A DNA stretch of 64,000 nt, taken from the NCBI GenBank assembly GCA_001508005.1, contig LGEZ01000001.1:52392-116391 (forward strand). Reading direction: 5' to 3'. Made by a program: the position numbers and the translations under genes. Source of the stretch: Clostridia bacterium 41_269 (GTDB taxonomy: Bacteria > Bacillota > DTU086). Under the pieces are notes generated by a model. It had not been told where the DNA came from and did not search any database. It saw nothing but the letters and a program-made list of their open reading frames with translations. How positions within the stretch are numbered: the stretch's first letter is position 1; every line of letters starts with the position of its first letter. Below are positions 13,171-60,398 of the stretch, one piece after another.

Positions 13171-13326
13171 GTTATTAGAAATTTACATAATATTACAATT
13201 ATTTTTTTAAAAAAAATTTATTTCAAATACAAACTTCGACATGTTTTTTATTTCAATAAAGTTATTATTATATACACACAGTAAATTTTCAGAATTTGTT
13301 AGATATTGGAGAGGGGGCTGGGGGAA

Positions 13327-15637: not shown

Positions 15638-17286
15638 ATGGAACACGAACACAATATGACTGACTATACCCAATGTTATAAAAATTTCCGGCTTGATGTT
15701 CCGGAGTACTATAATTTTGCTGTGGATGTAGTAGATAAATGGGCAGAAAAAGGGAACAAGCCGGCTCTTTTTTGCGTTGATGATAATGGGAATGAAATTC
15801 GTTATACATTTGGAGACCTAAAAGAAAAGTCCGATAGAGTCGGGGCAATGCTGCAGAGAATTGGGGTAGAAAAAAGAGATGGGATATTTATTATGCTGCC
15901 CAGAATACCCCAGTGGTGGGAAATTATTCTGGGGATATTAAAAGTGGGAGCTGTGGCCATGCCTGGTACGGTGCAGCTGATGCCCAGAGACATTGCTTAT
16001 AGAATTAAGATAAGCGAAGCAAAGGTGGCAGTAACGGATCTGGAAAATGCTCCGAAAATAGATGAAATTAAAGATCAATGCCCTCAACTGAAGACACTGA
16101 TTCTTGTAGGGGGCAGAAGACCCGGCTGGATAAGTTATTCAGACGAAATTAAAAAATACGAAAGCTTTACTCCTGTAAAGACAAAATCTTCAGACAATGC
16201 CATTCTATACTTTACATCAGGAACCACCGGGTATCCAAAAATGGTTCTGCATACCCATGCCAGCTATCCCCTTGCTCACATGATTACAGGAAAATATTGA
16301 CTTGATCTAAAGCCTGAGGACCGCCACTGGAATGTATCTGACAATGGTTGGGCAAAGGCTGCATGGAGCAGTCTTTTCGGGCCATGGCATATGGGTTCCG
16401 AGGTATTTGTACATAATACCAAAGGTCGTTTTAACCCAAAACGCACCTTGGAGCTAGTAGAGAAGTACAAAATTACTACCCTGTGTGCTCCTCCCACAGC
16501 ATATAGGCTCTTTGTCTTTGAGAACCTGTCATCCTATGATTTTAGCTCCCTTAGGCACTGCGTCAGCGCAGGAGAACCTTTGAACCCTGAAGTTATATCC
16601 ATATGGGAAAAACATACGGGATTAAAAATTTATGACGGCTACGGGCAGACAGAAACCGTTGTTTTGGTGGCCAATTTTCCATGTATGGAAATTAAACCGG
16701 GATCCATGGGAAAACCTGTTCCGGGATTTAAGGTAGACATTATAGATGATGATGGTGTTCCCCTTCCCAGAGGAGAAGAGGGTAATATTGCCGTGGATGT
16801 TTCTGAAAGCAGGCCTGTGGGCATGTTTAAAGAGTACTGGAAAGATCCCGAGGGCACAGAGAAGTGCTTTAAAAACGGCTGGTATCTGACCGGAGACAGG
16901 GCATACAAGGATGAAGATGGATATTTCTGGTTTGTGGGTCGTGCTGACGATGTTATTATCAGTGCTGGATACAGGATAGGGCCCTTTGAGGTGGAAAGTG
17001 CTTTAGTGGAGCATCCTGCGGTTGTGGAGGCGGCAGTGGTAGGTTCGCCGGATCCGGTGAGGGGGAAATTGTGAAGGCTTTTATAATCCTTGCAGATGAA
17101 TATGAGCCCACTGAGGAATTAGCAAAAGAGATACAGGAGTTTGTGAAATCAAACACTGCTCCATATAAATATCCCCGGGAGATTGAATTTGTAAAAAGTC
17201 TTCCCAAAACCATAAGTGGAAAAATACAGCGGGCAAAATTAAGGGAGGAAGAAAGGAGAAGGAAGCTATACTCAGATAAAGATTAG
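15638..17286 (+). pseudogene. Medium-chain acyl-CoA synthetase (AMP-forming, ACSM/MACS-like). The reading frame is broken by an in-frame TGA at 16298-16300, at a conserved Trp position, and by a one-base deletion in a G-run at 17061-17065.
   Basis: The AMP-binding motif YFTSGTTGYPKMVLHTHASYP is followed by KY-TGA-LDLKPEDRHWNVSDNGWAKAAW, where homologs have YWLDL. The C-terminal piece, ...PDPVRG / EIVKAFIIL...[13 protein letters not shown], is restored by adding one G. Confidence 0.75.
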
Positions 17287-23384: not shown

Positions 23385-24029
23385 TTATTTTATTTTTTTT
23401 CTGATGTAATGACTGCACCAATTTTTTAGAGTGCAGAGGGAGCATTTAGGATTTCTTGCGGTGCAGATGTTTCTTCCGTGGTAGATAAGCCAGTGGTGCA
23501 GTTTAGACCACAGATCTTTTTTAACAGCCTTCATAAGATCCTTTTCTGTACCCAGGGGTGTGCTGCTTTGAGCCAATCCCAGTCGGTTTGCCACTCTAAA
23601 AACGTGGGTATCCACAGCAATGGCGTCCTTTCCAAAACCGCTGCTTAAAACCACATTAGCTGTTTTTCTTCCCACACCGGGAAGTTTTATAAGGCTTTCA
23701 AAATCCGAAGGAACTTCTCCGTTGTACTTTTTGGCTAAAATTCTACATGCTGCGATAATATTTCTGCTTTTGTTTCTGTAAAGTCCGCATCCTTTGATTT
23801 CTTTTTCCAGTTCCTCAGGCTTTAGGGCTGCAAAATCTGCTGCGGTGGAATATTTTTTAAAAAGGTTTTTTGTAATTTTGTTGACCTGTTTATCCGTTGT
23901 CTGTGCAGATAGAATTGCGGCAATAAGAAGCTCAAAGGGATTGGAGTATTCCAGGGCTGTTCCTGCATTGGGATACAGCTTTTCCAGCTCTTTTATAATG
24001 TTTTCAACTTTTTCCTTGTCCAGTGTCAA
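23385..24029 (-). CDS. nth: Endonuclease III (DNA glycosylase/AP lyase, Nth)
   Basis: HhH-GPD motif (LPGVGRKTANVVL) and the C-terminal [4Fe-4S] loop CTARNPKCSLCTLKNWC. Confidence 0.85.
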   Translation of the reverse strand: MTLDKEKVENIIKELEKLYPNAGTALEYSNPFELLIAAILSAQTTDKQVNKITKNLFKKYSTAADFAALKPEELEKEIKGCGLYRNKSRNIIAACRILAKKYNGEVPSDFESLIKLPGVGRKTANVVLSSGFGKDAIAVDTHVFRVANRLGLAQSSTPLGTEKDLMKAVKKDLWSKLHHWLIYHGRNICTARNPKCSLCTLKNWCSHYIRKKIK

Positions 24030-26097: not shown

Positions 26098-26127
26098 CTC
26101 CGGAGAAGTCCGGAGTTATTTCTTTTT
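26095..26127. terminator. Bidirectional rho-independent terminator
   Basis: TAACTCCGGA-gaagt-CCGGAGTTA followed by TTTCTTTTT, between convergent genes. Confidence 0.7.
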
Positions 26128-27189
26128 CAATTCTTCTACCCTTTTTATAATAACCTGGGTTATTTCATTTAATACGTCCTGCCCCTGACCTCCTCTAAGG
26201 GTCACAGGATTACCGTCATCGCTTTTCTCACGGATTTCAGGCACCAGGGGTATTCGCCCCAGTATGGGGGCATTAAGGCTTTTAGCCATTCCTTCAGTTT
26301 CCCCTTTGCCGAAAATCCTGTATTCTTTACCGCAGTTGGGGCAGGTAAAAAAGGACATGTTTTCCACTATACCCAGAATTTTAACGTTTACCTCTTTGGC
26401 CATAAATCCTATCCTTCCTGCAATATGAGAAGCCGATGCCTGAGGCGTGGTAATTACCAGAAGAAATGAGTTGGGAAGCATATTCATTACGCTTAAAGGT
26501 GCATCTCCTGTTCCCGGCGGGAGGTCTACAAAGAGATAGTCCAGATTTCCCCAATCCACTTCCAGGATAAACTGCTTCAGCACCCCACCTATAACAGGAC
26601 CTCTCCATATAATGGGCCTGTCCCCATTATCTATAAAACTGCCCACAGATATGACTTTTACTCCGTTTCTTTCCAATGGTATCATTTTATTGTTTCTTCC
26701 CTGAACCCTTAAACCCTCCAGTCCCACTAGGCGGGGAATGCTGAAACCATAAAAATCAGCATCCAGTATTCCCACATTAAAGCCCAGCTTTCCTGCGGCA
26801 AAGGCAAAATTTGCGGTTAAGGTTGATTTTCCAACTCCTCCCTTACCGCTGCCCACCAGAACCACATTTGTATTTTTGAAAACCTGGGCTATCTTTTCCA
26901 TATCCAGATTGAAGAATATTCTCTTTTTCATCTCAGGGGACATTTCACCAAAAATAACTTCTACCTCTTTTATCCCTTCAATTTCTAAAACTGCCTGCTC
27001 CACATCAGATTTAATTTTGTTTTTTAAAGGGCATCCCTTTGTGGTAAGGACAATTTTTATCTTAGCTGAACCTCCCTCTGCCTCCACTTCTTCCACCATA
27101 CCCAACTCAACTAAACTTTTTTTAAGCTCAGGATCCTGAACCTTTTCCAAAGCTTTATAAATTTTTTCTTTTAAATCCATAGAAGTCAC
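26116..27189 (-). CDS. apbC: Mrp/NBP35-family Fe-S cluster carrier ATPase (ApbC) with an N-terminal DUF59/MIP18 domain
   Basis: Deviant Walker A GKGGVGKST, the CPNC Fe-S motif, and an N-terminal DUF59 (KVQDPELKKSLVELGMV). Confidence 0.85.
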   Translation of the reverse strand: MTSMDLKEKIYKALEKVQDPELKKSLVELGMVEEVEAEGGSAKIKIVLTTKGCPLKNKIKSDVEQAVLEIEGIKEVEVIFGEMSPEMKKRIFFNLDMEKIAQVFKNTNVVLVGSGKGGVGKSTLTANFAFAAGKLGFNVGILDADFYGFSIPRLVGLEGLRVQGRNNKMIPLERNGVKVISVGSFIDNGDRPIIWRGPVIGGVLKQFILEVDWGNLDYLFVDLPPGTGDAPLSVMNMLPNSFLLVITTPQASASHIAGRIGFMAKEVNVKILGIVENMSFFTCPNCGKEYRIFGKGETEGMAKSLNAPILGRIPLVPEIREKSDDGNPVTLRGGQGQDVLNEITQVIIKRVEELKKK

Positions 27190-47106: not shown

Positions 47107-47568
47107 ATGAAAGTGGAAACCTCTCGCTTTGGCTGTATAGAAGTGGATGAAGATAAGATAATATATTTTCCGTGGGGCATCCCGGGTTTTGAAGATTTAA
47201 AAAAATATTTTCTTGTTCCTGTTAATGAAAATCCATTTTTTACATGGCTTCAGTCCTTTGATGATCCCAACGTTGCCTTTTTACTGGTTGATCCTTTTTT
47301 GTTTTTTGAAGGGTATGAAGTGGAACTTACGGAGGATGTTAAGAAGGAACTTGAGATTGAGGATCGAAAAGATATAATAATCCAGGCTGTCACCAATATC
47401 CCTAAAACAGGAGTGGAAAATGCCACAGCGAATTTAGTGGGGCCTATTGTTATAAATGTTAGGAAACGCCTCGGCAGGCAGGTTATCCTTCAGGATGTGC
47501 CCTACGGCATAAAACACCTTCTTTTTCCCAAGAAAAAGGAAGGGGACCGCAGAATTGCTGCCGGATAA
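47107..47568 (+). CDS. fliW: Flagellar assembly factor FliW
   Basis: DUF180/FliW sequence (IYFPWGIPGFEDLKKYFLVP...FLLVDPF), directly upstream of csrA. Confidence 0.85.
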   Translation: MKVETSRFGCIEVDEDKIIYFPWGIPGFEDLKKYFLVPVNENPFFTWLQSFDDPNVAFLLVDPFLFFEGYEVELTEDVKKELEIEDRKDIIIQAVTNIPKTGVENATANLVGPIVINVRKRLGRQVILQDVPYGIKHLLFPKKKEGDRRIAAG

Positions 47569-47599: not shown

Positions 47600-47840
47600 A
47601 ATGCTCGTGCTGACGAGAAAAAAAAACGAAACCGTAGTTATCGGCAGCGATATTTTTGTTACTGTGGTGGATGTTGACGGCGATAAGGTTAAACTCGGTA
47701 TTAATGCGCCTAGAGATATCTCCATATACCGTAAAGAAATTTATGATGCCATTGTTAGGGAAAATGTTTCCGCTTCAATGGCACAGCCTGAAGATGTAGA
47801 ACATATTATAAAACTTTCCAGGATTCAGCAAAAAGAGTAA
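47600..47840 (+). CDS. csrA: Carbon storage regulator CsrA
   Basis: [15 protein letters not shown]...[17 protein letters not shown], with an RBS before ATG 47600. Canonical position after fliW. Confidence 0.9.
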
Positions 47841-47882
47841 AAATTCCGGTTTAATGCTACGGAAAGGGGCACTTGTATTCCT

Positions 47883-50800
47883 ATGAGAAGAAAGAGAAGC
47901 CGGCTGGAATCACTGGGTTTTTTTATTTTTTTAACTGTAGTTTCCTTGTTTTGTCTATTAAATTTTGGTCCTTTTTGCGCCTATGGGGAGGAAACCCTCA
48001 GCATCGTTTCTGTTACTCCAGATAAAGTCAGCAACGATGGGGGACAGATTATAACCATTAAGGGAACGGGCTTTATGACCGGAATGAAGATCTACTTCAA
48101 CGATGTGCAGGTGGGCCCCGGCAGTATCAGCATTAAACTCAGCAGTATAGGATATGATACGGCAGAAGTGGTGGCTCCTCCCGGTAATACGGGTTATGTG
48201 AAAATAAAAGTGGAAGATCCCTCCAACCCAGATAATTATGCCGTTCTGTTAAACGCTTTTTGGTATCAAAGCACCCCCACCATAACCGGCATAAGTCCAA
48301 ATTCCGGCTCCACTGTGGGAGGAACGGTCATAACCATAACGGGAAGCGAGTTTGGTGAAGCCGGTTCCATGGGAAACAGCATAGAACTGTACATCGGTTC
48401 TACGCGGGTTCAGAATGTTACACTTGTCAATTCCACAACCATAACGGCGGTTACTCCTCCTTCAACCTTAGGGCCAAAGTCCATAACCCTGATAAATGCT
48501 GACGGCGGTACCTGCACGGTTCCTTCGACTTCTGCCAATGCATTTACATATGTTCCCAGCAGCCCAAGCATTACATCGGTATCCCCTTCGTACGGACCCA
48601 CCCTTGGGGGCACTGAGCTTACAATAACCGGGCAGGAATTCAGCGAAAACGCCAAGGTTAAAATAGGTGAGCACTGGGCGCAGACGGTAACCTATGTAAG
48701 CAGTACAAAGCTCATTGCCACAGCTCCTGCTTCTGAAAATGTGGGATTTGCGGACGTTTTGGTGGAAAACCCTGACGGTCAGACGGCCGTATTGGACGAT
48801 GCCTTTGAATATATAGCGGTTCCGGTTGTACAAAATATCACTCCCAACTATGGTCTTCCCGGTGAAGACAGGACAAGCAATCCCGTCGTCATCACCGGAG
48901 CAAACTTTGACCCTAGTGGGGTTAATGTGTACTTTGGCGGAAAAGAAGCTCAGGTTAATCTCAGCACTCTTACCAGCACGAGGATAGAAATAACGAAGCT
49001 TCCGGACGTTACGCCCGGAACGGTGGATGTAAAGGTTGTTAATTTCAGGAATTCGAGAGAAGAATACACCTTAAAAAGAGGATTTACTTTTAAAACTCAA
49101 ACGAGTCAGCCCGAGATTTACAGCATTGATCCCAATTCTGGAAGCACCGAGGAATATACGAGGGTAACCATTAAGGGTAAGGAGCTTCTTACCGGGGCAA
49201 CACTGTACGTAGGCGGTGAGCCGGTTCCCCTTGACGATGCGGAGTTCATAAGCACAAGCGAAGTGAAGGTGACCATTCCCCCATCGTCCAAAACTGGTGC
49301 CAAGGATGTAAAATGGGTTAACTACGACGGCGGAGAAGATACTTTAGAAAGCGGATTTATCCACATAAGACCAGAGGAACAGGTAAAAATAACGAGCGTT
49401 ACGCCCAACAGGGGGCCCGAGGACGAGCATACGCCCATAACCATAAGCGGTGTGAACTTCATGGATCCAAATGATCCCGATTTTGTCAGCTGTACCGTTA
49501 CCATAGGCGACGTGCTCGTTTTGGATTTGGAGTGGGTTGACAGCAGGACTTTAAGAGCAAAAACGCCCCTTGGCTATGTCAGGGAAGGGGAAACGGAAAC
49601 TTCCTGGGACGTTGTCATCGTGCAGGTTTACAAAGACAGCGAAGGGAATGAGATAGTCCAGAAATACGTTTTTGCAAACGGCTTTACTTATGTGCTTCCG
49701 GGAAGCAACCCCACAATAGCTGAGGTTTATGATTACGAAACCTTTAGGAAGAGTCATATAACCGTTAATTCCGGTCCCCTCTCGGGAGGAAACAGGGCAG
49801 TCATTGTTGGTACCGATTTCCGCACCCAAGGGTCAACCCTTCCGAAAGTTGAATTCGGCACGGGTTACAGCTGGCGCGAAGCTCAGGTACTTCAGGTGAT
49901 AACCATTTCTTCGTCCCAGAGCGAGCCGGATTACGAAAGGGGAATTCCTGCATACGAGAGCGGTGTGAAGGAAATGGCGCTTGTTGTGGAAGTGCCTGAA
50001 GGTTTTTCCACGGGAAGCGTTGATGTTAGGGTAACCAACCCGGATTTGGGAACGGCAGTTCTTAAAAACGGCTGGATTTATAAGGTGTGCAGCCTCAACG
50101 TGACCGCCATCACACCGAACAGAGGTCCCGTGACGGGCGGTATCGTGGTGGTGATAAGCGGTGCCAACTTTACCGAAGATTACTCCCTCTGGGTCAAATT
50201 TGTTCACAACTATGGAGACGGTTCAACTGATACCACCGTTGTGGAGAACATTATCGAGATCAGGGACAGCGCTGTAAGGTTTTACCTTCCCAGAAGCATT
50301 GAGGGTTTAAAAGACGTAGTTGTTTACAACCGCTTTGGAGAGAGAACATTAAAGAACGCTTTTACCTACTATGCTCCTTTAAGCACCCCTTCCATTTCTT
50401 CTGTTACTCCCAGTTCGGGCTCTTCTCTGGGCGGGGACACGGTTGTTATAACTGGTGAGGACTTCAGGGAAGGGGCTGTGGTTACCATAGGCGGAAGGGA
50501 AGCCACGGTTGTCAATGTGACATGGGATACCATTGAAATAATAACTCCTTCCGGCACCCCGGGCTTAAAAGATGTGGCAGTGAGAAATCCCGACGGCGGA
50601 TATGTGGTGCTGAAGGAGGGATTTAAATATATAAGCAGTCCCGAAGTGATCTCCGTACAGCCTTCCGTGGTTAGCGCATCGGGAGGCACCATCGTGACCA
50701 TAAAAGGAAAGCAGTTTTACAGCGGGGCTTCCGTGTATTTCAAAAGAGGGGAAGCTTTACTTCAAGCTCCTGACGTAAAGGTTGCTGACGAGAATACTAT

Positions 50801-53800
50801 TATAGCAAGGGTTCCTGCCGGAGATACAGGGACCTACGATGTAATTGTGAGAAACGTAGACTATGATGTGGGCACTGGCTTTGGGGAAGGAGTTTTAGAA
50901 GACGGTATTACTTTTTATGAACCGCCGTCCCTTCTGCCTGAAGTTGAAGGGGTTTACCCCAATTCTGCCTCTGAGGGAGGAGGAATTCCTGCTGTTGTAA
51001 CGGGGCAGAATTTTCAGCCGGGAGCAGTGGTATATTTCGGTCTTGAAGAAGCAAGGGTTCTGGAATATTTAGGCAGTGAAAGCATCAAAGTGCTTGTTCC
51101 TTCTAATTCTGAAGGAGAGTATTACATTACGGTAACGAACCCTGATGGCGGAACGGGAGTATCTGAAAGTGCCCTTTTCACATACAAAAAGGCTGTGACC
51201 TATCCTGAAATTATAAGCATTTCGCCTTCCGCGGGAAGCGTTGAGGGAAGCACATTTGTGGTGATAAGGGGCAAAAACTTTCGCACTGGAGCTGTGGTTT
51301 ACTTTGGAAGCCGGGAGGCATCTTCTGTGGTCGTTTCCCTTGAGGATACATCTGCTGGAATATATAAGATTACCTGTTTTACGCCTCCGGGATCCGTGGG
51401 CTTCGTTGATGTTATTGTTATGAATCCTCCAAGTTCTTACGGTGTGGCAGTTTTTGAGGACGGCTTTGAGTACAGGAGGCCTGCCAGCAGTCCCAAAATA
51501 AACTCCGTTATGCCTCCCAGCGGTCCCACTACAGGAGGCACTAAGGTTACCATTAAGGGAAGCGATTTTAGGACAGGAGTTAAAATATATTTTGACGGAA
51601 TATTGGCCCAAAGCGTAACCCTTGTGGATTCGGAAACCATAACTGCAGTTTCTCCGGCTCACGGTGCGGGAAAGGTTGCCGTGACTGTGGTTAATTACGA
51701 TGGGGGTTCCGATACTTACGGCGACAGCGCCGATGAGCTGGGATTTACCTATGCGCTACCCGCAAGCAGTCCCGAAGTGCACTCTGTGGATCCCAAATAC
51801 GGGCCTTCCTGGAAGGAAACCTGGGTAACCATATACGGCTTGGATTTCAGACCAGGGGCTAAGGTTTACTTCGGCTTTTTGGAATCTTCCCAAGTGGAAT
51901 ACATTGACTATCAAACTTTGCGTGCCCTTGCCCCTGCCCAGCCGAAAAGCACTGTTGACGTTACTGTGGTGAACGAAGATTATGGGACGGGCACTTTAAA
52001 GAACGCTTTTACATACAGGAGCTCGGCTCCCGAGATTGAATCAATTGCTCCGGAATTGGGAGACAAAAACGGCGGATACGAAGCTGTTATATACGGCAGT
52101 GAGTTTATCGTTGAATATGATGGAAGCGGAGAAACTATAGTCCTGTGCCCAAGAGTTTACTTTGAGCAGGGGACATTGAGGGCTGAAGCTGAAGTTCTTG
52201 TGGGTTCGGATTCGCAGTCGCTTTTAATTGTGGTTCCTGCTGCCCCAGGTGGTATTATTGGCTATTACGATGTGAGGGTGGTAAATCCCGATGGATCAGA
52301 AGCTGTCCTAAGCAAAGGATTTAAATACACGGTTTCCGCAAGCAGTCCCACAATAACTGGAGTTGAACCTCAAAAGGGTATTGTTTTGGGCGGCACCCCC
52401 ATAAAAATTTACGGTTCCGATTTCAGGGGTGAGGCTTTGGTTTTCATTGGAGGAAAGAAAGCTTTAAACGTTGTTGTGGTAAGTGAAGGATTAATAAGAG
52501 CGGTTACTCCGCCGCACAGTGCAGGCAAAAAAGACATTACCGTTGTCAATTACGACGGTGGCCGCTATACATTGGAAGATGCCTTTGAGTACGGCATGCC
52601 TTTAAGCGAGCCCATAATAACAAAAATTGAGCCTTCCAAGGGGCCCAGCACAGGAGGAACAAAAATTACCGTCACAGGAAGGGATTTTAGAGCCAATGCA
52701 TCCCTGTACATTGGCGGAGAGCCCTGTACTGATGTAGTGGTTGTGGATTACAAAACCATTACGGCAGTGACTCCTCCAGGAGAAGTGGGTAAGGCAGACG
52801 TTATAGTAATAAACGAAGACCTGGGCACAGCGGTTCTTCCAGGAGGATTTACCTACATTTATGTAGAGCCTCCAGTAGTTGAATCCGTGATTCCAAACCG
52901 AGGGCCCACTACGGGAGGTACCGAAATCATCATATCAGGAAGTAACTTTAAAAAAGGTGCCGTGGTCTATATAGGGGAAGCAAAAGCCGAAGTGAGAGAG
53001 GTTTCTTCTGATAAGATAACTGCGGTTACTCCTGCAGGAGGTCCAGGCTGGCATGATGTGATTGTGATTAATACGGACGGGGGAAAAGGAGTTCTTGAGG
53101 ATGCCTTTTACTACTACGAGCCAAGGACGGAACCTAGCACACCGAGCTGGCTTAAAGCGGAAGCCTTCGACGAGCGGACGGTGAAACTTTCTTGGGGAGA
53201 GGCAAAATTTGCTAACTACTTTGAAGTTTACGTCAGGGAAAAGGGAGACAACATCTTTAGATTTGTCGATCAAACGAAGAATGACGTTCACGAGTACTAT
53301 GTTACGGGACTGAAGCCTGGTACCCTGTATGTTTTTAAGGTGAGGGCTGTCAATGAGCTGGGTATTTCCCAGTTTACAGATACCGCTGAAGCAAGAACAA
53401 AATCTGGTGATGCTGATGAAGAAGCTGAAGAGGATAAAGAGAAGGCTCAGGAAAGGGTAAGGATAGAACACGGCCAGAATTCGGTTTTTGTCATCATACC
53501 CGGTGATAAGGCTCTTAAAAGAGAGGACTATATCTTTGATTTCAGCGGTGCTTCATATTACGGTGTAAAAACTTTTGTGCTGCAGGTCAGCGCGGATGCT
53601 GCAGGGGATATTGCAAAGGAAGTGACTGTGAGACTCAGCGGTGCGGAAATTACATTGCCCCCTGTGCTTTGGAACCTTTCTGAAGTGAAGTCTTTAAAGA
53701 GTTCGGATAGAAAAAATGCTCTTATCCGATTTAGGGTGTCCGATGCGGGGTACAGGGATGTAGAAAGCGCCCTTTCGGTTTTGCCCAAAGGGGCAAAGAT

Positions 53801-54053
53801 TGCAGGTAGAGCCCTTGCCGTAAGCGTAGACGTATGGAACAGAGGAGTGGTTCTGAAGCCTGCTGTTTACCCTGCTTCCATAAAAGTATTGTTTAAGATG
53901 GCTTCAACTTCATATTCATATGGCAGCTCCCTTTCTATATTAAGGTACGATACGTCGGGGAGCTGGCGTTATGATACTCAAGCGGTTGCTTCAACCTCGG
54001 GCGTTTATACCTATACGAAAGTCCCGGCAACACTTCTTCCTGTTTACCGGTAG
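47883..54053 (+). CDS. Giant secreted cell-surface protein, 2056 aa. Signal peptide, about 18 tandem IPT/TIG (Ig-like) domains, one fibronectin type III domain and an acidic Glu/Asp-rich segment. No SLH or LPXTG anchor.
   Basis: The N-terminal signal peptide is MRRKRSRLESLGFFIFLTVVSLFCLL. A roughly 100-aa repeat unit of the form I-T/S-x-[IV]-x-P-x-x-G-P/S-x-x-GGT-x-[IV]-T-I-x-G-x-x-F recurs about 18 times. The FN3 domain is LSWGEAKFANYFEVYV...YVFKVRAVN. The gene is co-directional with csrA and only 42 nt downstream, with no terminator between. Confidence 0.8.
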   Translation: MRRKRSRLESLGFFIFLTVVSLFCLLNFGPFCAYGEETLSIVSVTPDKVSNDGGQIITIKGTGFMTGMKIYFNDVQVGPGSISIKLSSIGYDTAEVVAPPGNTGYVKIKVEDPSNPDNYAVLLNAFWYQSTPTITGISPNSGSTVGGTVITITGSEFGEAGSMGNSIELYIGSTRVQNVTLVNSTTITAVTPPSTLGPKSITLINADGGTCTVPSTSANAFTYVPSSPSITSVSPSYGPTLGGTELTITGQEFSENAKVKIGEHWAQTVTYVSSTKLIATAPASENVGFADVLVENPDGQTAVLDDAFEYIAVPVVQNITPNYGLPGEDRTSNPVVITGANFDPSGVNVYFGGKEAQVNLSTLTSTRIEITKLPDVTPGTVDVKVVNFRNSREEYTLKRGFTFKTQTSQPEIYSIDPNSGSTEEYTRVTIKGKELLTGATLYVGGEPVPLDDAEFISTSEVKVTIPPSSKTGAKDVKWVNYDGGEDTLESGFIHIRPEEQVKITSVTPNRGPEDEHTPITISGVNFMDPNDPDFVSCTVTIGDVLVLDLEWVDSRTLRAKTPLGYVREGETETSWDVVIVQVYKDSEGNEIVQKYVFANGFTYVLPGSNPTIAEVYDYETFRKSHITVNSGPLSGGNRAVIVGTDFRTQGSTLPKVEFGTGYSWREAQVLQVITISSSQSEPDYERGIPAYESGVKEMALVVEVPEGFSTGSVDVRVTNPDLGTAVLKNGWIYKVCSLNVTAITPNRGPVTGGIVVVISGANFTEDYSLWVKFVHNYGDGSTDTTVVENIIEIRDSAVRFYLPRSIEGLKDVVVYNRFGERTLKNAFTYYAPLSTPSISSVTPSSGSSLGGDTVVITGEDFREGAVVTIGGREATVVNVTWDTIEIITPSGTPGLKDVAVRNPDGGYVVLKEGFKYISSPEVISVQPSVVSASGGTIVTIKGKQFYSGASVYFKRGEALLQAPDVKVADENTIIARVPAGDTGTYDVIVRNVDYDVGTGFGEGVLEDGITFYEPPSLLPEVEGVYPNSASEGGGIPAVVTGQNFQPGAVVYFGLEEARVLEYLGSESIKVLVPSNSEGEYYITVTNPDGGTGVSESALFTYKKAVTYPEIISISPSAGSVEGSTFVVIRGKNFRTGAVVYFGSREASSVVVSLEDTSAGIYKITCFTPPGSVGFVDVIVMNPPSSYGVAVFEDGFEYRRPASSPKINSVMPPSGPTTGGTKVTIKGSDFRTGVKIYFDGILAQSVTLVDSETITAVSPAHGAGKVAVTVVNYDGGSDTYGDSADELGFTYALPASSPEVHSVDPKYGPSWKETWVTIYGLDFRPGAKVYFGFLESSQVEYIDYQTLRALAPAQPKSTVDVTVVNEDYGTGTLKNAFTYRSSAPEIESIAPELGDKNGGYEAVIYGSEFIVEYDGSGETIVLCPRVYFEQGTLRAEAEVLVGSDSQSLLIVVPAAPGGIIGYYDVRVVNPDGSEAVLSKGFKYTVSASSPTITGVEPQKGIVLGGTPIKIYGSDFRGEALVFIGGKKALNVVVVSEGLIRAVTPPHSAGKKDITVVNYDGGRYTLEDAFEYGMPLSEPIITKIEPSKGPSTGGTKITVTGRDFRANASLYIGGEPCTDVVVVDYKTITAVTPPGEVGKADVIVINEDLGTAVLPGGFTYIYVEPPVVESVIPNRGPTTGGTEIIISGSNFKKGAVVYIGEAKAEVREVSSDKITAVTPAGGPGWHDVIVINTDGGKGVLEDAFYYYEPRTEPSTPSWLKAEAFDERTVKLSWGEAKFANYFEVYVREKGDNIFRFVDQTKNDVHEYYVTGLKPGTLYVFKVRAVNELGISQFTDTAEARTKSGDADEEAEEDKEKAQERVRIEHGQNSVFVIIPGDKALKREDYIFDFSGASYYGVKTFVLQVSADAAGDIAKEVTVRLSGAEITLPPVLWNLSEVKSLKSSDRKNALIRFRVSDAGYRDVESALSVLPKGAKIAGRALAVSVDVWNRGVVLKPAVYPASIKVLFKMASTSYSYGSSLSILRYDTSGSWRYDTQAVASTSGVYTYTKVPATLLPVYR

Positions 54054-54076
54054 CGGCAAAATTATCTTCAAGGGAG

Positions 54077-56590
54077 ATGGGCAGGGTGAAAGCAAAGAAT
54101 TTTAAAGTCTTTTTCACGGCTTTTGTTTTACTTGCGATATTCTGGTGCGGGGAGTTTTTCCTTGAGGCAGAGGTTGCAGAAGGCACTTCATATACCCAGT
54201 ATAGAGGTGTAAGCTACGGAGAAAAGTACCTCTCTGCCATAAAGTTTAGGGACGTGGGAAGTCACTGGGCCAAGGTGCCTATATATCGCTCTGCTGCACA
54301 GGGCCTGATATTCGGATACGGCAGCGGGTATTTCCGCCCGAATTCTCCCGTTACTAGAGAAGAAGCTGCTGCCATGCTTGTGCGCTTAAAGGGAGTAGGC
54401 GGAGATGACCTCCAAAATAATGGGGGTACAGGGGGTTCATGGGCATCTCCCCATCTTCAGGTTGCCTTGGATGAGGGCATCATAACAGAGCAGGAAAAAA
54501 GTGCAATGGAAAAAAATCCGGGAAGATATGCCCAAAGACAGCAGGTGGCAGCTTGGGCGGCAAAAGTTCTTGAATTGGAGCCCGACTACAGCATAGGATA
54601 TCAGCTTCTCCGTTCCTTTAAGGACTGGCAGAAAATAACTTCGGAATACACTCCCTTTGTAGCCGCTTCTGTAAGGGAAGGGGTTTTTGCCGGCAGTGCA
54701 TCTGGCTACTTTAAGCCCAATGCTTCTATATCTAGGGGAGAGATGGCTGCGGTTTTGGACAGGCTGAGCCAACGACTGGCTGAAGATAGGGGGTTGGTTT
54801 TTGCTGAGGGCAAGGTAACGGGAAGCGAGGCGTATTGGGAGGAAACTCCATCGGGACGGAAAAAGAAGGTTGAAGTTATGGTGCAGAAGAGCTCCGGAGA
54901 AACGGTGCTCATAAAAAGCGGCGGAACTGACGGGGATTACCCCGTATACAGAGGAGGAAAGCTGGGACTCAGTGATCTGCTGAAGAGCGGGGATTACGTA
55001 AAAATGGTCCTCACGGAAAACGGAGAGGTGCTTTTCGTCGAGGTTTCCGCATCAGCCTCTCGGGCGCTTACGGGCACTTTTGTGGGGCTTGACCTTGACG
55101 GAAAGAAAATCTACATAAGGGATTTCCAAGGTAAAGATCTTGTTCTTCCCATTCAGTTGCCCCTGGGGGTTACCATAAACGGAATGGGGGTTGAGCCGCA
55201 GGACCTGATTCCCGGGCAGGAGGTTTCCCTAACCGTTAAAGGAGGGGCTGTCACGGCAGTTGCGGGAATCCTTGACAAGATTCCCGATATTTATGGTGAG
55301 AGCCGCAGGGAAGTGGTTGAGGGAGTTGTCAAAAATGTGAGCTCCTCCGGGGATGAGATAACCGTTGCCTCCGGAAACAGACAGCTGACTTTTAGAATTG
55401 ATTCCCGAACTGCCGTAATTAAGAGGGGAACTCCCTACTCTCCCAAGTGGATAAAAGCAGGGGACAGCGTCAAGGTACAAACGGTGGGCGGCGGATATGC
55501 TTCAAGGGTTGAAGTGTTTTCGGGTGAAAAAACGGCTGCAGGCATTATTAGGGGAAGAATTGAGGGTGTCAGCTCATCTTCGGGAAGGATTGTTTTAAGC
55601 GGCGTGGAAAGATATTTTTACGGCGGATGGTACGCTGACACGGGCTCCCTCGTTCTTAAAGTTTCACCCAATGCAGAGATTTACGATATAAGCGGGCGCG
55701 TAGATGTCAACTGGCTCGAGAAGTCTGCAGCGGGAAGGGAGATTTACGCTGTTATTGCTGAAAGCTTTGGATCGCCGGAAGCCCAGAGCATTTATGTAAA
55801 GAGCGGATACTCGGAAAGCAGAAGCGGACTTGTGGACGAAATTGACTTTTCTACTGCCCGTATGTACCTTGAAGACGGATTCGGCGGCATAATCATCGGT
55901 CCGCAGACTTCGGTGGTGCGAAACGGCAGGCTTATAAGCGTGGAAGATGTGGAGGAAGGGGCTTCCGTTTTTGTGGAAACCGACAGGGTTTCTGGAGAGG
56001 AGTACGGTGCCTTCATCCTTTGGGATGATTTCATACCGACAGGGTGGAGCTTAATAAGGGGTGAAATAGATGAAGTGGACGACGGAGAAATAACGTTGAG
56101 CTCCTACAGCTTATTTGACGACAATGATTGGGACGAGCCCAGTTCCTCTTCAAAAGATAGAGATCTTGAAGTTTCAACAGAGGCTGTGATCATCGACGCT
56201 GTAGATCCTCAAAACCCCAAAACACTGGAACCCGAAGACTTCTTCTACACCAGGTTTACAAGTGATTATGAAAACAAATTTGCCGTTGCTCTTGTGTACG
56301 ATGATCTCGTAAAGGGATTGGTCATTTTGGATGGTGAGCCTAGCGGTGATAGAACCAGCATCGGCGTGGTCAGTTCCGCTTCGGGCGGTAAAATAAATAT
56401 CGATAGGGTTAGGGACTGGAGCTCGCCCGTTGGGGAGTGGAAGGTAAACCGTTATTCCGTAAGCCTCAGTATAAAGGGGGCAGCCGTAGTGAGAAAGGGA
56501 GAGGTTTATGCAGGCACGGGTGTGCGCTCCGGAGACACCGTTTTCGTGCTTCATGATATGAACAGCGTTCATGTGGTATTCGTTCAGTGA
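54077..56590 (+). CDS. SLH-domain cell-wall-anchored protein (three N-terminal SLH modules plus repeated small beta-domains). The start may be GTG 54086.
   Basis: SLH motifs (FRDVGSHWAKVPIYRSAAQGLIFGYGSGYFRPNSPVTREEAAAMLVRL; ...ISRGEMAAVLDRL) follow a signal-anchor N-terminus. 837 aa. Confidence 0.75.
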   Translation: MGRVKAKNFKVFFTAFVLLAIFWCGEFFLEAEVAEGTSYTQYRGVSYGEKYLSAIKFRDVGSHWAKVPIYRSAAQGLIFGYGSGYFRPNSPVTREEAAAMLVRLKGVGGDDLQNNGGTGGSWASPHLQVALDEGIITEQEKSAMEKNPGRYAQRQQVAAWAAKVLELEPDYSIGYQLLRSFKDWQKITSEYTPFVAASVREGVFAGSASGYFKPNASISRGEMAAVLDRLSQRLAEDRGLVFAEGKVTGSEAYWEETPSGRKKKVEVMVQKSSGETVLIKSGGTDGDYPVYRGGKLGLSDLLKSGDYVKMVLTENGEVLFVEVSASASRALTGTFVGLDLDGKKIYIRDFQGKDLVLPIQLPLGVTINGMGVEPQDLIPGQEVSLTVKGGAVTAVAGILDKIPDIYGESRREVVEGVVKNVSSSGDEITVASGNRQLTFRIDSRTAVIKRGTPYSPKWIKAGDSVKVQTVGGGYASRVEVFSGEKTAAGIIRGRIEGVSSSSGRIVLSGVERYFYGGWYADTGSLVLKVSPNAEIYDISGRVDVNWLEKSAAGREIYAVIAESFGSPEAQSIYVKSGYSESRSGLVDEIDFSTARMYLEDGFGGIIIGPQTSVVRNGRLISVEDVEEGASVFVETDRVSGEEYGAFILWDDFIPTGWSLIRGEIDEVDDGEITLSSYSLFDDNDWDEPSSSSKDRDLEVSTEAVIIDAVDPQNPKTLEPEDFFYTRFTSDYENKFAVALVYDDLVKGLVILDGEPSGDRTSIGVVSSASGGKINIDRVRDWSSPVGEWKVNRYSVSLSIKGAAVVRKGEVYAGTGVRSGDTVFVLHDMNSVHVVFVQ

Positions 56591-56602
56591 TTGGGGTGGT
56601 AA

Positions 56603-58183
56603 ATGTTGATTTGTGCGCTGTCAAAGGTGAAAAAATTGGCGTCTTATGCTCTGATTTTCTTTATCGGAATTTATGCGGTTTTTCTCGGTACACCTGGAGC
56701 TTTTGCCGCGGAGGACCCCAGAAACACCGAAGGGGGAGTGTACAACGACAGCGAGTATCAGGAAATTCTTTTCATCACGGGTAAGCCAGTAATTCTTAAA
56801 GGCACCGTAAAGTCCAGCGGAGGAGCGGGACGCAGCGGCAGGGGCACTTATACGTCTTCGGTCAACTTTACTTTGGAAAATGCCGATGAGGGTATAAAAC
56901 TTACCCGCAGGATATCCTTCACAACCACGGAGGAGAAAAGGGACAGGCAAACTGTGACCGTGACGAAGGTTAATTCCTTTTCCGAGTCCATAAAGGTTGG
57001 GGAGCGAACCTACACCCTTAAAGATTTTACCTTCAGCAAATCCGTCATCACCGATGACAGACCTGCGGTGGACTACTTTTCTGGAAACTGGAGCGCCAGA
57101 AAGGTTTACGAAACCGACAAAGGTGCTGGGCAGCTTGTGGTGGATATAATCGGCGAGACCGTAGGCTACGACAGCTTCTGGGGAAGCACCGAAACCCAAA
57201 GGGTATCGGGGAGCCTGAACTTTGAGGGGAAGGTTACTGTTGGTGAAGCCGTGTATGAAGACGAGTGGGGTGGTACCTTTGCCTTTGACGCAACCTACAA
57301 CAGAATCAAGGAAGTTACCTATGAAGAAAACGATCCTCAGTACATAAGCTTTCCCGGCGGATTCGTTCTCACGGAAAACACCGACCACTACGTGAGGTAT
57401 ACTGCAAGGCTTCCCGAGTTTGACGAAAGCGGTATTTCTACGAGCGGATGGGAGCAGTATTCGGGCAGTTTGAGCCTGTCAGGTGCTCCCTCATACAAGA
57501 GGCTTCCTACTCACTACTTCAGGGATATGGGAAGCCACTGGGCAAGAAGCGATGCGGAACTGCTCTACGGTCTCGGAGTGCTGGACAGGGGAGAATATTT
57601 CGGTCCCACTGTGCCCATGACCCGTGGAGAATTTGCTCGCATGCTGGCAAGGGCGCTGGGGCTGGTTTCTTCGGATGAGGGAAGTGCACAGAACGGCAGG
57701 ACCGTTAAAAGAACCATAGGTGTGAGTCTTCCTTGGGGCGGATTCGGCGGAACGGCAGGCCGTGAGGAAGAGAAGCTTTTCCACGATGTCCCCAGCGACC
57801 ACCCCTATTACAGTGAAATTAAAGCCGTGTACGAAAGCGGCATCATAAAGGGTACGGGAAACGGTTATTTCTCTCCGGGAGAGAAGCTTACCAGGGCACA
57901 GGCTTTGACCATATTCATAAGGGCTCTAGGGTTTGACCACATTCCCCTTGCTTCGTACCTTCTGGATGCTTACAGGGATGCTTCCCAGATTCCCAAATGG
58001 GCTGTAAATTCCGTTTTTCTGGCAGCGGAAATAGGGCTGGTGGAAGGAAACAGTTACGGGTACCTCCTTCCCAACAGCGTCCTCACCAGAGCGGAAGCTG
58101 CTTCCCTTCTTACCAGGTTTATAACATACATGCAGAAGGATTTGAGGACAGAGTACAGGGACAGGCTGCTGGGCTACCGCTGA
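56603..58183 (+). CDS. Secreted protein with three C-terminal SLH modules
   Basis: Signal peptide (ASYALIFFIGIYAVFLGTPGAFAAE). C-terminal SLH motifs (FRDMGSHWARSDAELLYGLGVLDRG...TRGEFARMLARAL; FHDVPSDHPYY...TRAQALTIFIRAL; ...TRAEAASLLTRF). Confidence 0.75.
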   Translation: MLICALSKVKKLASYALIFFIGIYAVFLGTPGAFAAEDPRNTEGGVYNDSEYQEILFITGKPVILKGTVKSSGGAGRSGRGTYTSSVNFTLENADEGIKLTRRISFTTTEEKRDRQTVTVTKVNSFSESIKVGERTYTLKDFTFSKSVITDDRPAVDYFSGNWSARKVYETDKGAGQLVVDIIGETVGYDSFWGSTETQRVSGSLNFEGKVTVGEAVYEDEWGGTFAFDATYNRIKEVTYEENDPQYISFPGGFVLTENTDHYVRYTARLPEFDESGISTSGWEQYSGSLSLSGAPSYKRLPTHYFRDMGSHWARSDAELLYGLGVLDRGEYFGPTVPMTRGEFARMLARALGLVSSDEGSAQNGRTVKRTIGVSLPWGGFGGTAGREEEKLFHDVPSDHPYYSEIKAVYESGIIKGTGNGYFSPGEKLTRAQALTIFIRALGFDHIPLASYLLDAYRDASQIPKWAVNSVFLAAEIGLVEGNSYGYLLPNSVLTRAEAASLLTRFITYMQKDLRTEYRDRLLGYR

Positions 58184-58195
58184 TACCGAAAAGTC

Positions 58196-58236
58196 AAAGA
58201 GCCCCGAAGTATTTTTTTCGTCGGGGCTCTTTTTTA
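58196..58236 (+). terminator. Rho-independent terminator ending the flgM...SLH transcription unit
   Basis: AAAGAGCCCCGA-agtattttttt-CGTCGGGGCTCTTT followed by TTTT. Confidence 0.8.
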
Positions 58237-58251
58237 GGAAGAAGCCCCTTC

Positions 58252-58281
58252 TTGACATCGAACATATGTTCCCTGTATAAT
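58252..58281 (+). promoter_or_regulatory. Sigma-A promoter with an embedded LexA (Cheo/SOS) box
   Basis: TTGACA-N18-TATAAT. The spacer contains CGAACATATGTTCC (58259-58272), matching the Gram-positive LexA box consensus CGAAC-N4-GTTCG. Confidence 0.75.
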
Positions 58282-58320
58282 TGCTTTGGGAAGTCATATT
58301 AAGGGAGGGGGAGAAGAGGG

Positions 58321-58628
58321 TGAGGGGCAATACCCTTTGGGAGGGGCACAGGGTCGTAGTTTCCGAGCTCAGGCAGGGCATAGCCCGAACCAAAAGGGAG
58401 GCGGAGGCTGAAGACCCGCCCTTTCTGCCCGATGAAAGAATTGCGGAGATTGAGACGGTCTTAAGGGAAGCCGCCTCTGCCCAAAGGCCTGTGGAGGTAA
58501 CCTATTTCAACGGAGAGAAAAGGGTGAAAGTTTTGGCGAAAAAAGTTTCCTTTCCCGGAAACGGCGTGGTGCAGCTGGATGCCGTAAGGGTTCACTACAC
58601 CATGATAACCGATGCCCGCTTTTGTTAA
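58321..58628 (+). CDS. YolD-like protein (SOS-mutagenesis accessory family), orphan with no adjacent Y-family polymerase
   Basis: VRGNTLWEG...LPDERIAEIETVLREA...VEVTYFNGEK...VQLDAVRVHYTMI parallels the B. subtilis YolD layout (RGNIKW ... EE..L.E ... V.VKLYNG ... F.DIVSI). An AGGGAGGGGGAG RBS precedes GTG 58321. A LexA box lies in its promoter. Confidence 0.5.
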
Positions 58629-58698
58629 TGCCGTCGGGCAGGAATTTTGTGCACGGCATAGAAAAGGTAATCGTAATTAGATTTTGGGAGGGGATTTT

Positions 58699-59463
58699 TT
58701 GAATCTTCTTGAAGTAAGAAATCTGACCCTTAAAAAGGGAGAAAACGAAATACTCAAAAAGGTCAATCTGATCCTTGAACCTGGTGAAGTCCATGCGGTT
58801 ATCGGTCCCAACGGTGCCGGCAAAAGCAGCCTTGCCTATACCATTATGGGCCTTGAGGGTTACAGTCCAAAAGAAGGCAAGATTTTCTTTGAAGGAGAAG
58901 ATATCACAAACCTTCCCATAAACGAAAGGGCCAAAAGGGGCCTTACCCTTGCATGGCAGGAGCCCGCACGCTTTGAAGGTATTACCGTGGAGCAGTATTT
59001 AAAAATAAGCACCAACGGGTCCAAGCAGTACAGTTCCAGTGGTATTGAGCTTCCCCGGCTGACGCCCGAGGAAGCTCTTCTGAAGGTCGCCCTTAATCCC
59101 GAAAAGTACCTTAAGAGAAAGGTGGACAAAGGTTTAAGCGGCGGCGAAAGAAAGCGCGTGGAACTTGCATCCATCCTGCTCATGCGCCCCAAAGCCGTGA
59201 TTTTGGACGAGCCTGATTCGGGAATTGACACGGTGGCCATTGAGAAAATTTTTGAGATAATAGAGGAGTTTAAGAGACTCGGGATCGGGGTGCTTCTCAT
59301 TACCCACTCCCACAAAATGCTGGAAGCGGCTGACTGCGCTACCCTCCTTTGTTCCGGTTTTGTGGTCAAAACGGGGTCCCCTGAGGAAGCGGCGGAATAC
59401 TACAACGTCCGGTGCCTTCCCTGCCCCAGTGAAGTGTATCCCCAGGAGGAGGAAAAGATATGA
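58699..59463 (+). CDS. sufC: Fe-S cluster assembly ATPase SufC
   Basis: ABC ATPase with Walker A GPNGAGKSS, signature LSGGERKR and Walker B ILDEPDSGID. The SufC-typical N-terminus LLEVRNLTL follows TTG 58699 behind a GGGAGGGG RBS. Confidence 0.8.
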   Translation: MNLLEVRNLTLKKGENEILKKVNLILEPGEVHAVIGPNGAGKSSLAYTIMGLEGYSPKEGKIFFEGEDITNLPINERAKRGLTLAWQEPARFEGITVEQYLKISTNGSKQYSSSGIELPRLTPEEALLKVALNPEKYLKRKVDKGLSGGERKRVELASILLMRPKAVILDEPDSGIDTVAIEKIFEIIEEFKRLGIGVLLITHSHKMLEAADCATLLCSGFVVKTGSPEEAAEYYNVRCLPCPSEVYPQEEEKI

Positions 59464-60398
59464 ACGATTTTGAAAAAATGGTGGAAGCGTACGAAAGCTC
59501 AGGGGGACAGCCTGAAGCATTCAAGGACAGCGATGTTGCCCACCTGGTGGTTGCCGAAAACAGAGTCCTTGGGGCTCACCTTGTCCCGGGGCTGAACATG
59601 GACGTGGAAGAAACCGAAAAGGGGATAAGGGCGCTTTTGGTTGTTGAAGAGGGGGCGAAAATAAAGAAACCTGTTCACCTGTGCTTTGGGGTCCTCCCTG
59701 AAGAAGGAATCCAGCGGATAGAAATGCGGGTTGAAGTAAAGGACGGCGGGAGCGTATCCGTAACTGCCCACTGCGTTTTTCCCAATGCGGTTAAGGTAAA
59801 GCATCTGATGGATGCGGAAATAGTGGTTGGAAATAATGCCAGGTACGAATACCGAGAAACCCACTTTCATGGAAACTTCGGCGGCGTTGAGGTTATCCCC
59901 AGGGCGAAAATAGTCCTTGGGGAGAACAGCGCATTGAAGTCTTTCTTCGGTTTGCCGAAGGGAAGGGCAGGTGTGGTGGATATTGACTACGATGCCGAGG
60001 TCGGCGCCAATTCTGTTATGGAGCTTTTGGCAAGGGTGAACGGTTACGGAAACGACAGGATTAAGATCAGGGAAGCGGGCTGCCTGAAGGGCGACGGCTC
60101 CAGGGGGCTCCTTGAGAGCAAAATCGCCCTGAAGGACGAAGCCCGGGCTGAGGTTTTCAATGAGATTGTTGCCCTTGGCGCAAAGGCGTGGGGACACGTA
60201 GACTGCACGGAGATCATAAGGGACAGGGCCTTTGCCAAAGCCGTTCCCGTAGTGGACGTGCGCCACCCAGAAGCAAGGGTCACCCACGAAGCTGCCATAG
60301 GCGGCGTGAACAAGACCCAGCTGGAGACCCTCATGGCAAGGGGGCTTTCTGAGGAGGAAGCTACGGAGATGATCGTTCAGGGGCTTCTTCAGGGCTGA
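59460..60398 (+). CDS. SufB/SufD-family Fe-S cluster assembly scaffold protein (short form)
   Basis: The SufBD beta-helix C-terminal region is present. The gene is translationally coupled to sufC. 312 aa. Confidence 0.65.
   Translation: MNDFEKMVEAYESSGGQPEAFKDSDVAHLVVAENRVLGAHLVPGLNMDVEETEKGIRALLVVEEGAKIKKPVHLCFGVLPEEGIQRIEMRVEVKDGGSVSVTAHCVFPNAVKVKHLMDAEIVVGNNARYEYRETHFHGNFGGVEVIPRAKIVLGENSALKSFFGLPKGRAGVVDIDYDAEVGANSVMELLARVNGYGNDRIKIREAGCLKGDGSRGLLESKIALKDEARAEVFNEIVALGAKAWGHVDCTEIIRDRAFAKAVPVVDVRHPEARVTHEAAIGGVNKTQLETLMARGLSEEEATEMIVQGLLQG

Follow-up and report, generated by a model that had tools for sequence, protein, structure and literature searches.

A predicted LexA-controlled yolD gene in a clostridial genome, probably half of an SOS translesion-synthesis module that has been split

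A consensus promoter with an embedded palindrome precedes a yolD-family gene

We analysed a 64-kb stretch of DNA from an uncultured clostridial genome (hereafter the window), focusing on a short gene of the yolD family, on its promoter, and on a palindrome within that promoter that is predicted to be an operator of LexA, the repressor of the SOS response. The locus comprises the following features, upstream to downstream:

58196-58235, + strand: intrinsic terminator that ends the SLH-protein gene upstream (stem of 12 bp, AAAGAGCCCCGA/UCGGGGCUCUUU, then a U run)
58252-58257, + strand: -35 hexamer TTGACA (promoter scan; unchanged in orthologs)
58259-58272, + strand: predicted LexA operator (Cheo/SOS box) CGAACATATGTTCC, the single perfect match in the window
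58276-58281, + strand: -10 hexamer TATAAT (promoter scan; unchanged in orthologs)
58303-58313, + strand: ribosome-binding site GGGAGGGGGAG, 6 nucleotides (nt) before the GTG start
58320-58628, + strand: yolD-family gene, GTG start, 102 amino acids (aa), stop codon TAA at 58626-58628

The segment 58248-58284 reads cttcTTGACAtCGAACATATGTTCCctgTATAATtgc. Both hexamers match the consensus (12/12 positions in the promoter scan), and the box takes 14 of the 18 spacer positions, starting 1 nt after the -35 hexamer and ending 3 nt before the -10 hexamer (1+14+3 geometry); a preliminary description of this DNA had placed a LexA box between TTGACA and TATAAT with an 18-nt spacer, and that placement is exact. 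The LexA (Cheo box) consensus of Firmicutes is CGAACRNRYGTTYC, which the 14-mer matches at 14 of 14 positions. A perfect CGAAC-N4-GTTCS (CGAACNNNNGTTCS) occurs once in the 64 kb against 0.07 expected, and this one occurrence is the 14-mer. TTGACA-N16-18-TATAAT also occurs once (0.04 expected from shuffles) and is the sole 12/12 consensus promoter of the window. Each element is unique in the window and rare by expectation, and one lies within the other, so that they are unlikely to have arisen by chance.

Transcription of yolD is predicted to start near 58288-58290. The terminator at 58196-58235 folds with -22 kcal/mol (z -2.54; 0 of 200 shuffles equally stable), and an equivalent hairpin is present at L005, one of the related loci (L numbers) compared below. 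As this strong intrinsic terminator closes the SLH-protein gene, the yolD promoter appears to stand alone, insulated from upstream transcription. A longer version of the gene from a TTG start at 58281 (115 aa), called by one gene caller, was rejected: this start overlaps the -10 hexamer and is not conserved.

The 102-aa product and its family

PF08863 (YolD) is the sole Pfam family for the window protein at E-values up to 1 (E 4.2e-6, 27.2 bits, gathering score 27.5), with residues 15-67 aligned to profile positions 3-55 of 94; an NCBIfam search of the protein gave no match. The same Pfam profile matches 22 of 24 aligned family members (best E 2.8e-18), and hhalign of the family alignment (A4, whose first row is the window protein) against YolD of phage SPbeta returned a probability of 97.0% (E 8.9e-11) over 102 aligned columns, the full length. 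The profile check gives a divided answer, in that the window protein by itself stays below the cut-off while most of its aligned relatives match PF08863 and the family alignment matches SPbeta YolD.

The motifs RGNTLW, LPDERIAEIE and VEVTYFNG are all present on conserved family columns, in agreement with the YolD-like layout (RGNxxW, acidic centre, VxVTYFNG) described earlier. The N-terminal motif RGNxLWEGHR, which reads RGNTLWEGHRVVVSEL in the window protein, is near-invariant in the 24-sequence alignment: W7, G9, H10 and R11 show no variation, and conservation of N4, L6 and E8 is at least 90%. At position 15 the window protein has Ser in place of a conserved Pro. From these sequence features we assign the 102-aa open reading frame (ORF) to the YolD family.

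In an AlphaFold2 model, for which the alignment was shallow, residues 1-29 are disordered, residues 38-54 form a helix, and a six-strand SH3/WYL-like barrel spans residues 58-101 (per-residue confidence score, pLDDT, about 90). This agrees with the layout of a flexible N-terminus, helix and SH3/Sm/WYL-like beta-barrel predicted for YqjX and YolD (PMC6511836). Pfam searches of the window protein gave no WYL or Peptidase_S24 match, no helix-turn-helix (HTH) or WCX domain was found in the 102 aa, and a PDB sequence search with the family profile returned nothing significant.

The subfamily is tiny. A k-mer protein search found only four close homologs, and an exhaustive search of representatives found two clusters below E 1e-10, the others being distant YolD proteins. 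A GTDB genome scan yielded 32 related loci, and a metagenome scan only a duplicate of L001. The window YolD is HBT20189.1 (DEA47_02290), and an identical protein occurs in 'Clostridia bacterium 41_269'.

Conservation of promoter, operator and gene

Orthologous loci (L001-L005, L007) encode YolD proteins 82-85% identical to that of the window. All of them keep TTGACATCGAACATATGTTCCC..TATAAT intact where the intergenic DNA on either side fails to align, and 28 of 30 positions of the 30-bp promoter-operator block are invariant across the six loci. The palindrome, checked in every orthologous promoter, is identical throughout. Further afield, a Cheo-type box is placed likewise within the promoter at 12 of 12 clostridial loci that carry a Y-family DNA polymerase gene together with yolD, and lies upstream of most Bacilli yolD genes; altogether, more than 25 loci have an equivalent box at a homologous promoter of polymerase-yolD or of yolD.

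The coding sequence is conserved as well. Synonymous divergence (dS) between the orthologous lineages is 0.4-1.0, and the ratio of nonsynonymous to synonymous divergence (dN/dS) is 0.12-0.18 for yolD versus 0.10-0.14 for sufC, the downstream neighbour. The GTG start, the ribosome-binding site and an intact frame are kept in three diverged lineages. Because its dN/dS is as low as that of sufC, yolD appears to be a functional gene and not a relic.

A candidate partner polymerase on another contig

The preliminary description had reported no polymerase gene adjacent to yolD, and indeed no Y-family polymerase was found in the window (tblastn, best E 0.088) or in the approximately 4.6 kb that locus L039 adds past its 3' end. 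The accompanying label 'orphan' holds for position only. A cluster look-up, made with the cluster of polymerase P0035, returned the polymerase HBT19897.1 (P0155) from the same Peptococcaceae metagenome-assembled genome (MAG) as HBT20189.1, and a contig look-up placed it on DOLA01000002.1 and the window on DOLA01000003.1, both of assembly GCA_003510095.1. A partner polymerase was thus recovered elsewhere in the genome, and with it a sister LexA-box promoter. We had at first inferred that the polymerase was simply deleted, given the lack of a tblastn match in the window and a cluster (P0100) that came from a different MAG, an inference that HBT19897.1 overturned.

P0155 shares 70% identity with the polymerase that is linked to yolD in L006, and its DMNSFFAS and SIDEAF motifs are intact. 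Its best NCBIfam model is NF002848 (486 bits, cut-off 381), which is also the best model for SPbeta UvrX. The C-terminal tail of P0155 ends LARTCDFLKDRYGENSVQRAVLLEKKSIFA.

The promoter of this polymerase gene (locus L053) reads TTGACA-t-CGAACATATATTCC-cac-TAAAAT, with the same 1+14+3 geometry and 18-nt spacer as the yolD promoter, within an upstream region tgccTTGACAtCGAACATATATTCCcacTAAAAT...AAGGGAGGGGGAGagtgGTG. Its promoter block TTGACAtCGAACATATATTCCcacTAAAAT is followed by AAGGGAGGGGGAGA, and promoter and operator together are identical to those of the window at 22 of 23 positions. The block AAGGGAGGGGGAGA, at 58301-58314 in the window, recurs at L053:4984-4997 (14/14; blastn-short, E 0.021). 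Each of the two promoters has one box. Downstream of the polymerase no remains of yolD were found on L053, L050 or L052, and stop codons occur in all frames.

Gene order in related loci

Polymerase and yolD are adjacent in L006, L008, L018, L024, L025 and others. The order in L006 is polymerase, yolD, sufC, sufB; that in L008 is cggcTTGACTcCGAACAAATGTTCCcacTATAAT, polymerase, yolD, with the same 1+14+3 geometry as in the window. In 11 further clostridial loci a polymerase gene is followed by a small gene whose product has at least the N-terminal YolD motif, and each of these 11 has a Cheo-type box between or beside the hexamers, often with a second box downstream. Within the 100 nt that precede the polymerase gene at L025, L027, L033, L034, L035, L037 and L038, a second Cheo-like box, such as CAAACACTTGTTC, lies just past the -10.

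The small protein is unrelated to YolD, apart from the N-terminal motif, at 5 of the 11 clostridial loci. Small genes after the polymerase at L027:6001-6315, L033:5995-6306, L035:5995-6168, L037:5995-6294, L038:5995-6312 and L041:4202-4516, from several Bacillota MAGs, encode proteins that have only the peptide RGNKLWEGHR..LPELREK in common with YolD; the remainder is Cys-rich (CxxC), unrelated to YolD and without a Pfam match. This pattern suggests that the YolD N-terminal motif may be a movable module for partner binding that has been joined to two distinct domains.

The pair is not always together. P0034 and P0035, the closest relatives of the L006 polymerase (72% and 70% identical), lie behind TTGACATCGAACATAT(G/A)TTCC and have no yolD downstream. 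At L050:3100-4436 and L051:3880-5209, a polymerase 72% identical to that of L006 stands behind an identical TTGACATCGAACATATGTTCC block without yolD, and judged by gene content these two loci are a second lineage in which the polymerase-yolD pair is uncoupled. The L050/L051 polymerase adjoins PIN-domain fragments and a TnpB-like (Cas12f1-like_TNB) remnant. Conversely, 15 of 17 evaluable loci from Thermoactinomycetaceae and Tumebacillus have a LexA-box yolD with no polymerase within about 6 kb.

Proposed splitting of an SOS translesion-synthesis module

We propose, with a probability of about 0.8, that an SOS translesion-synthesis module has been split and that the yolD gene of the window is one of its two halves. 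The ancestral clostridial unit would have been a single LexA-repressed operon, in which a sigma-A promoter with the box in its spacer drove a YqjW/UvrX-type polymerase followed by yolD. In the window lineage the genes would now occupy separate loci, yolD having stayed beside sufCB, with each keeping a copy of the same promoter and operator. That the two promoters are near-copies, sharing the -35 hexamer, the box position and the ribosome-binding site, is what points to the splitting of one operon; the route was presumably either duplication with complementary loss or relocation.

In the undamaged cell, a LexA dimer on the palindrome between -35 and -10 would block RNA polymerase. DNA damage would lead to RecA filaments on single-stranded DNA (ssDNA) and hence to LexA self-cleavage, upon which both promoters would fire together. 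The 102-aa YolD would then join the polymerase as a small subunit, the proposed Gram-positive counterpart of UmuD'. The putative contact is probably with the polymerase's conserved C-terminal tail. The earlier suggestion of a LexA-controlled yolD promoter is supported, as none of the three sequence checks that were run, on the family profile, on the palindrome in orthologous promoters and on a polymerase elsewhere in the genome, contradicted it.

Several observations weigh against this proposal. First, LexA binding, damage induction and the transcription start are all predictions from sequence, and tblastn with LexA and RecA probes, limited to the 64-kb window, found neither gene there, the absence of lexA counting against the proposal, although as weak evidence. 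Second, the box of P0155 has one core mismatch (ATTC for GTTC) and its -10 is weaker, so that yolD and the polymerase are perhaps not equally regulated, and the identity of the two ribosome-binding sites could be due in part to chance, as both are purine-rich (E 0.021). Third, the Pfam score of the window protein lies 0.3 bits under the gathering threshold. Lastly, YolD proteins have no more than a putative role even in B. subtilis, where deletion of yqjX cut UV mutagenesis only about 1.5-fold (PMC6511836).

If the proposal is correct, one LexA-controlled polymerase-yolD operon can split into two units, each with a copy of promoter and operator, and the locus offers a clear clostridial example for the proposed Gram-positive Pol V counterpart (YqjW/UvrX-type polymerase, YolD and RecA). 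Since yolD would be under purifying selection after the split, YolD would still be needed, which bears on whether it matters for translesion synthesis.

The sufCB neighbour and alternative explanations

Directly downstream of yolD lie the following features:

58638-58663, + strand: GCAGGAAT...CATAGAA, a conserved element within the yolD-sufC spacer of 70 nt
58699-59463, + strand: sufC, TTG start, 254 aa; Pfam ABC_tran
59460-60398, + strand: sufB/D-type gene, 312 aa; Pfam SUFBD_core

An alternative that is compatible with the split module is that the LexA promoter drives a yolD-sufC-sufB operon, with yolD as leader gene and iron-sulphur (Fe-S) assembly boosted during the SOS response. yolD and sufCB remain neighbours in the window, L001, L002 and L007, and also in L006, a more distant locus. 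The spacer contains no + strand terminator and no T run, its folding is not significant (z -1.1, +0.4, -0.7) and no hairpin in it is conserved; the promoter scan detected no other sigma-70-like promoter upstream of sufC. On the other hand, GCAGGAAT and CATAGAA, 11 nt apart in the window, are invariant in the window, L001, L005, L007 and L006 while the other spacer columns diverge, and this element may be sufCB's own promoter or a regulator site; we take the pair to resemble a sigma-H-type -35/-10. Moreover, L008 and other polymerase-yolD loci have no sufCB downstream, so the linkage appears lineage-specific and is maybe accidental, and a probably essential housekeeping system would be unlikely to rely on a repressed promoter. 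We regard such an operon as possible but doubtful.

As no terminator separates yolD from sufCB and the two stay side by side in L006 as well as in the window clade, transcription from a derepressed LexA promoter might read through into sufC-sufB and make the SUF genes SOS-inducible, which we consider unlikely. If true, SOS-induced SUF genes would plausibly supply Fe-S repair enzymes. This possible transcriptional coupling of yolD to sufCB is the sole potentially new angle of the locus; to our knowledge, no link between SOS and SUF has been described for Firmicutes.

The SUF system here is limited to sufC and the SufB/D-type gene, which is short (312 aa); neither sufS, sufU, sufD nor sufE adjoins them. 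In this it resembles minimal SUF-like systems of two genes in anaerobes. The window also encodes, at 26116-27189, an Mrp/ApbC-type Fe-S carrier.

A second alternative is that YolD, once separated, took on an SOS role independent of the polymerase, for example as a small ssDNA-binding protein acting through its WYL-like barrel. WYL domains of DriD and PafBC bind ssDNA. The frequency of LexA-box yolD genes with no polymerase nearby (15/17 in Thermoactinomycetaceae and Tumebacillus) is in its favour, as is the divergence of the window-clade YolD, which is 45% identical to that of L006 when SufC and SufB are 79% identical. However, a polymerase of the type linked to YolD persists in the genome behind a sister operator, the family motif at the N-terminus (W7, G9, H10, R11) is intact, and there is no WYL Pfam match. 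The likeness of the barrel is also unspecific, Hfq and designed SH3 barrels scoring similarly. We judge this role to be quite improbable.

Thirdly, the palindrome might not be a LexA site at all, having arisen in the spacer by chance or serving a different regulator, so that the gene would be expressed constitutively from its strong promoter. LexA binding to the box is read from the sequence, and lexA was not seen in the window. Against this stand the perfect agreement with the Firmicutes consensus (14/14), its invariance across orthologs, like boxes at homologous promoters in Clostridia, Bacilli and phage SPbeta, and the same box at the partner polymerase gene of the same genome, which together make a non-LexA palindrome very improbable. 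That the ORF is a decaying relic, as the loss of the polymerase from the locus and the borderline Pfam score might suggest, is hardly credible, being contradicted by a dN/dS of 0.12-0.18 at dS 0.4-1.0 (the same as for sufC), by an intact frame, GTG start and ribosome-binding site kept in three diverged lineages, and by a confidently folded model.

Genomic surroundings

Upstream of the yolD promoter lie fliW (47113-47565), csrA (47601-47837) and three surface-protein genes (47883-58183) that encode a 2056-aa TIG/fn3 protein and two SLH proteins (837 and 526 aa). L001 has no surface-protein genes, csrA standing directly before the yolD promoter, and L005 and L007 have three short scars matching window positions 47842-47995, 55397-55482 and 58127-58301, from which the surface-protein genes appear to have been deleted there. 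Judged by these loci the surface-protein setting is incidental and the conserved neighbour is sufCB. The preliminary description, which had yolD inside a surface-protein island and directly before sufCB, was thus right in the second part, and the first is of no consequence. A foreign island was considered and rejected, as the G+C fraction is flat at 0.41-0.53 across 46-64 kb and gives no signal.

Elsewhere in the window, addB-addA (5928-13170) and the gene for an endonuclease III (HhH-GPD; 23385-24029) have no Cheo box, near-matches to which occur only inside coding regions (8877 and 50049-50129). A histidine kinase at 13306-14531 is split into overlapping ORFs (PAS and HisKA, then HATPase_c), and an AMP-binding enzyme at 15638-17074 is present as two ORFs about 90 nt apart that cover profile positions 5-187 and 232-384; these split genes are frameshifts, pseudogenes or MAG assembly errors.

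Comparison with known systems

The proposed pair resembles E. coli umuDC (Pol V) in being LexA-repressed and in combining a small accessory subunit with a Y-family polymerase. A proposal that equates YolD with UmuD' in function has been published (PMC6511836), and YolD is described as lacking S24 peptidase features (PMC11442139). Unlike UmuD, it has no S24 peptidase domain, Ser-Lys dyad or cleavage site, so that the resemblance is one of proposed function and YolD would be at most a functional analogue of UmuD' and not a member of its family. The protein also differs from the WYL ssDNA sensors (PafBC, DriD, CapW, BrxR), having 102 aa only, no HTH or WCX domain and no WYL Pfam match.

Closer parallels are yolD-uvrX of B. 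subtilis phage SPbeta, which has two Cheo boxes upstream, and the chromosomal yqjX-yqjW (polY2), which belong to the same protein family and, by NF002848, the same polymerase subfamily. In SPbeta and B. subtilis, however, yolD precedes the polymerase in one operon, whereas in the clostridial relatives the polymerase comes first, and in the window genome the two are unlinked.

The closest likeness in arrangement is to S. aureus, where yolD and the Y-family polymerase are likewise unlinked and each has its own LexA box. There, yolD (SACOL1986 / SAOUHSC_02144; box CGAACATGTGTTCT) and umuC/uvrX (SACOL1400 / SAOUHSC_01363; box CGAACACGTGTTCT) occupy separate loci and are both SOS-induced (PMC6511836, PMC11442139). 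Unlike S. aureus, the present case comes from an uncultured clostridial or Peptococcaceae MAG in which induction is a prediction, its two promoters are near-copies of each other, and yolD abuts sufCB with no terminator between. The split LexA-controlled arrangement of yolD and polymerase is thus already known from S. aureus and is ordinary SOS biology, to which the clostridial loci make modest additions: the gene order in Clostridia, with the polymerase before yolD, and a pair of near-duplicate promoters as the record of a split.
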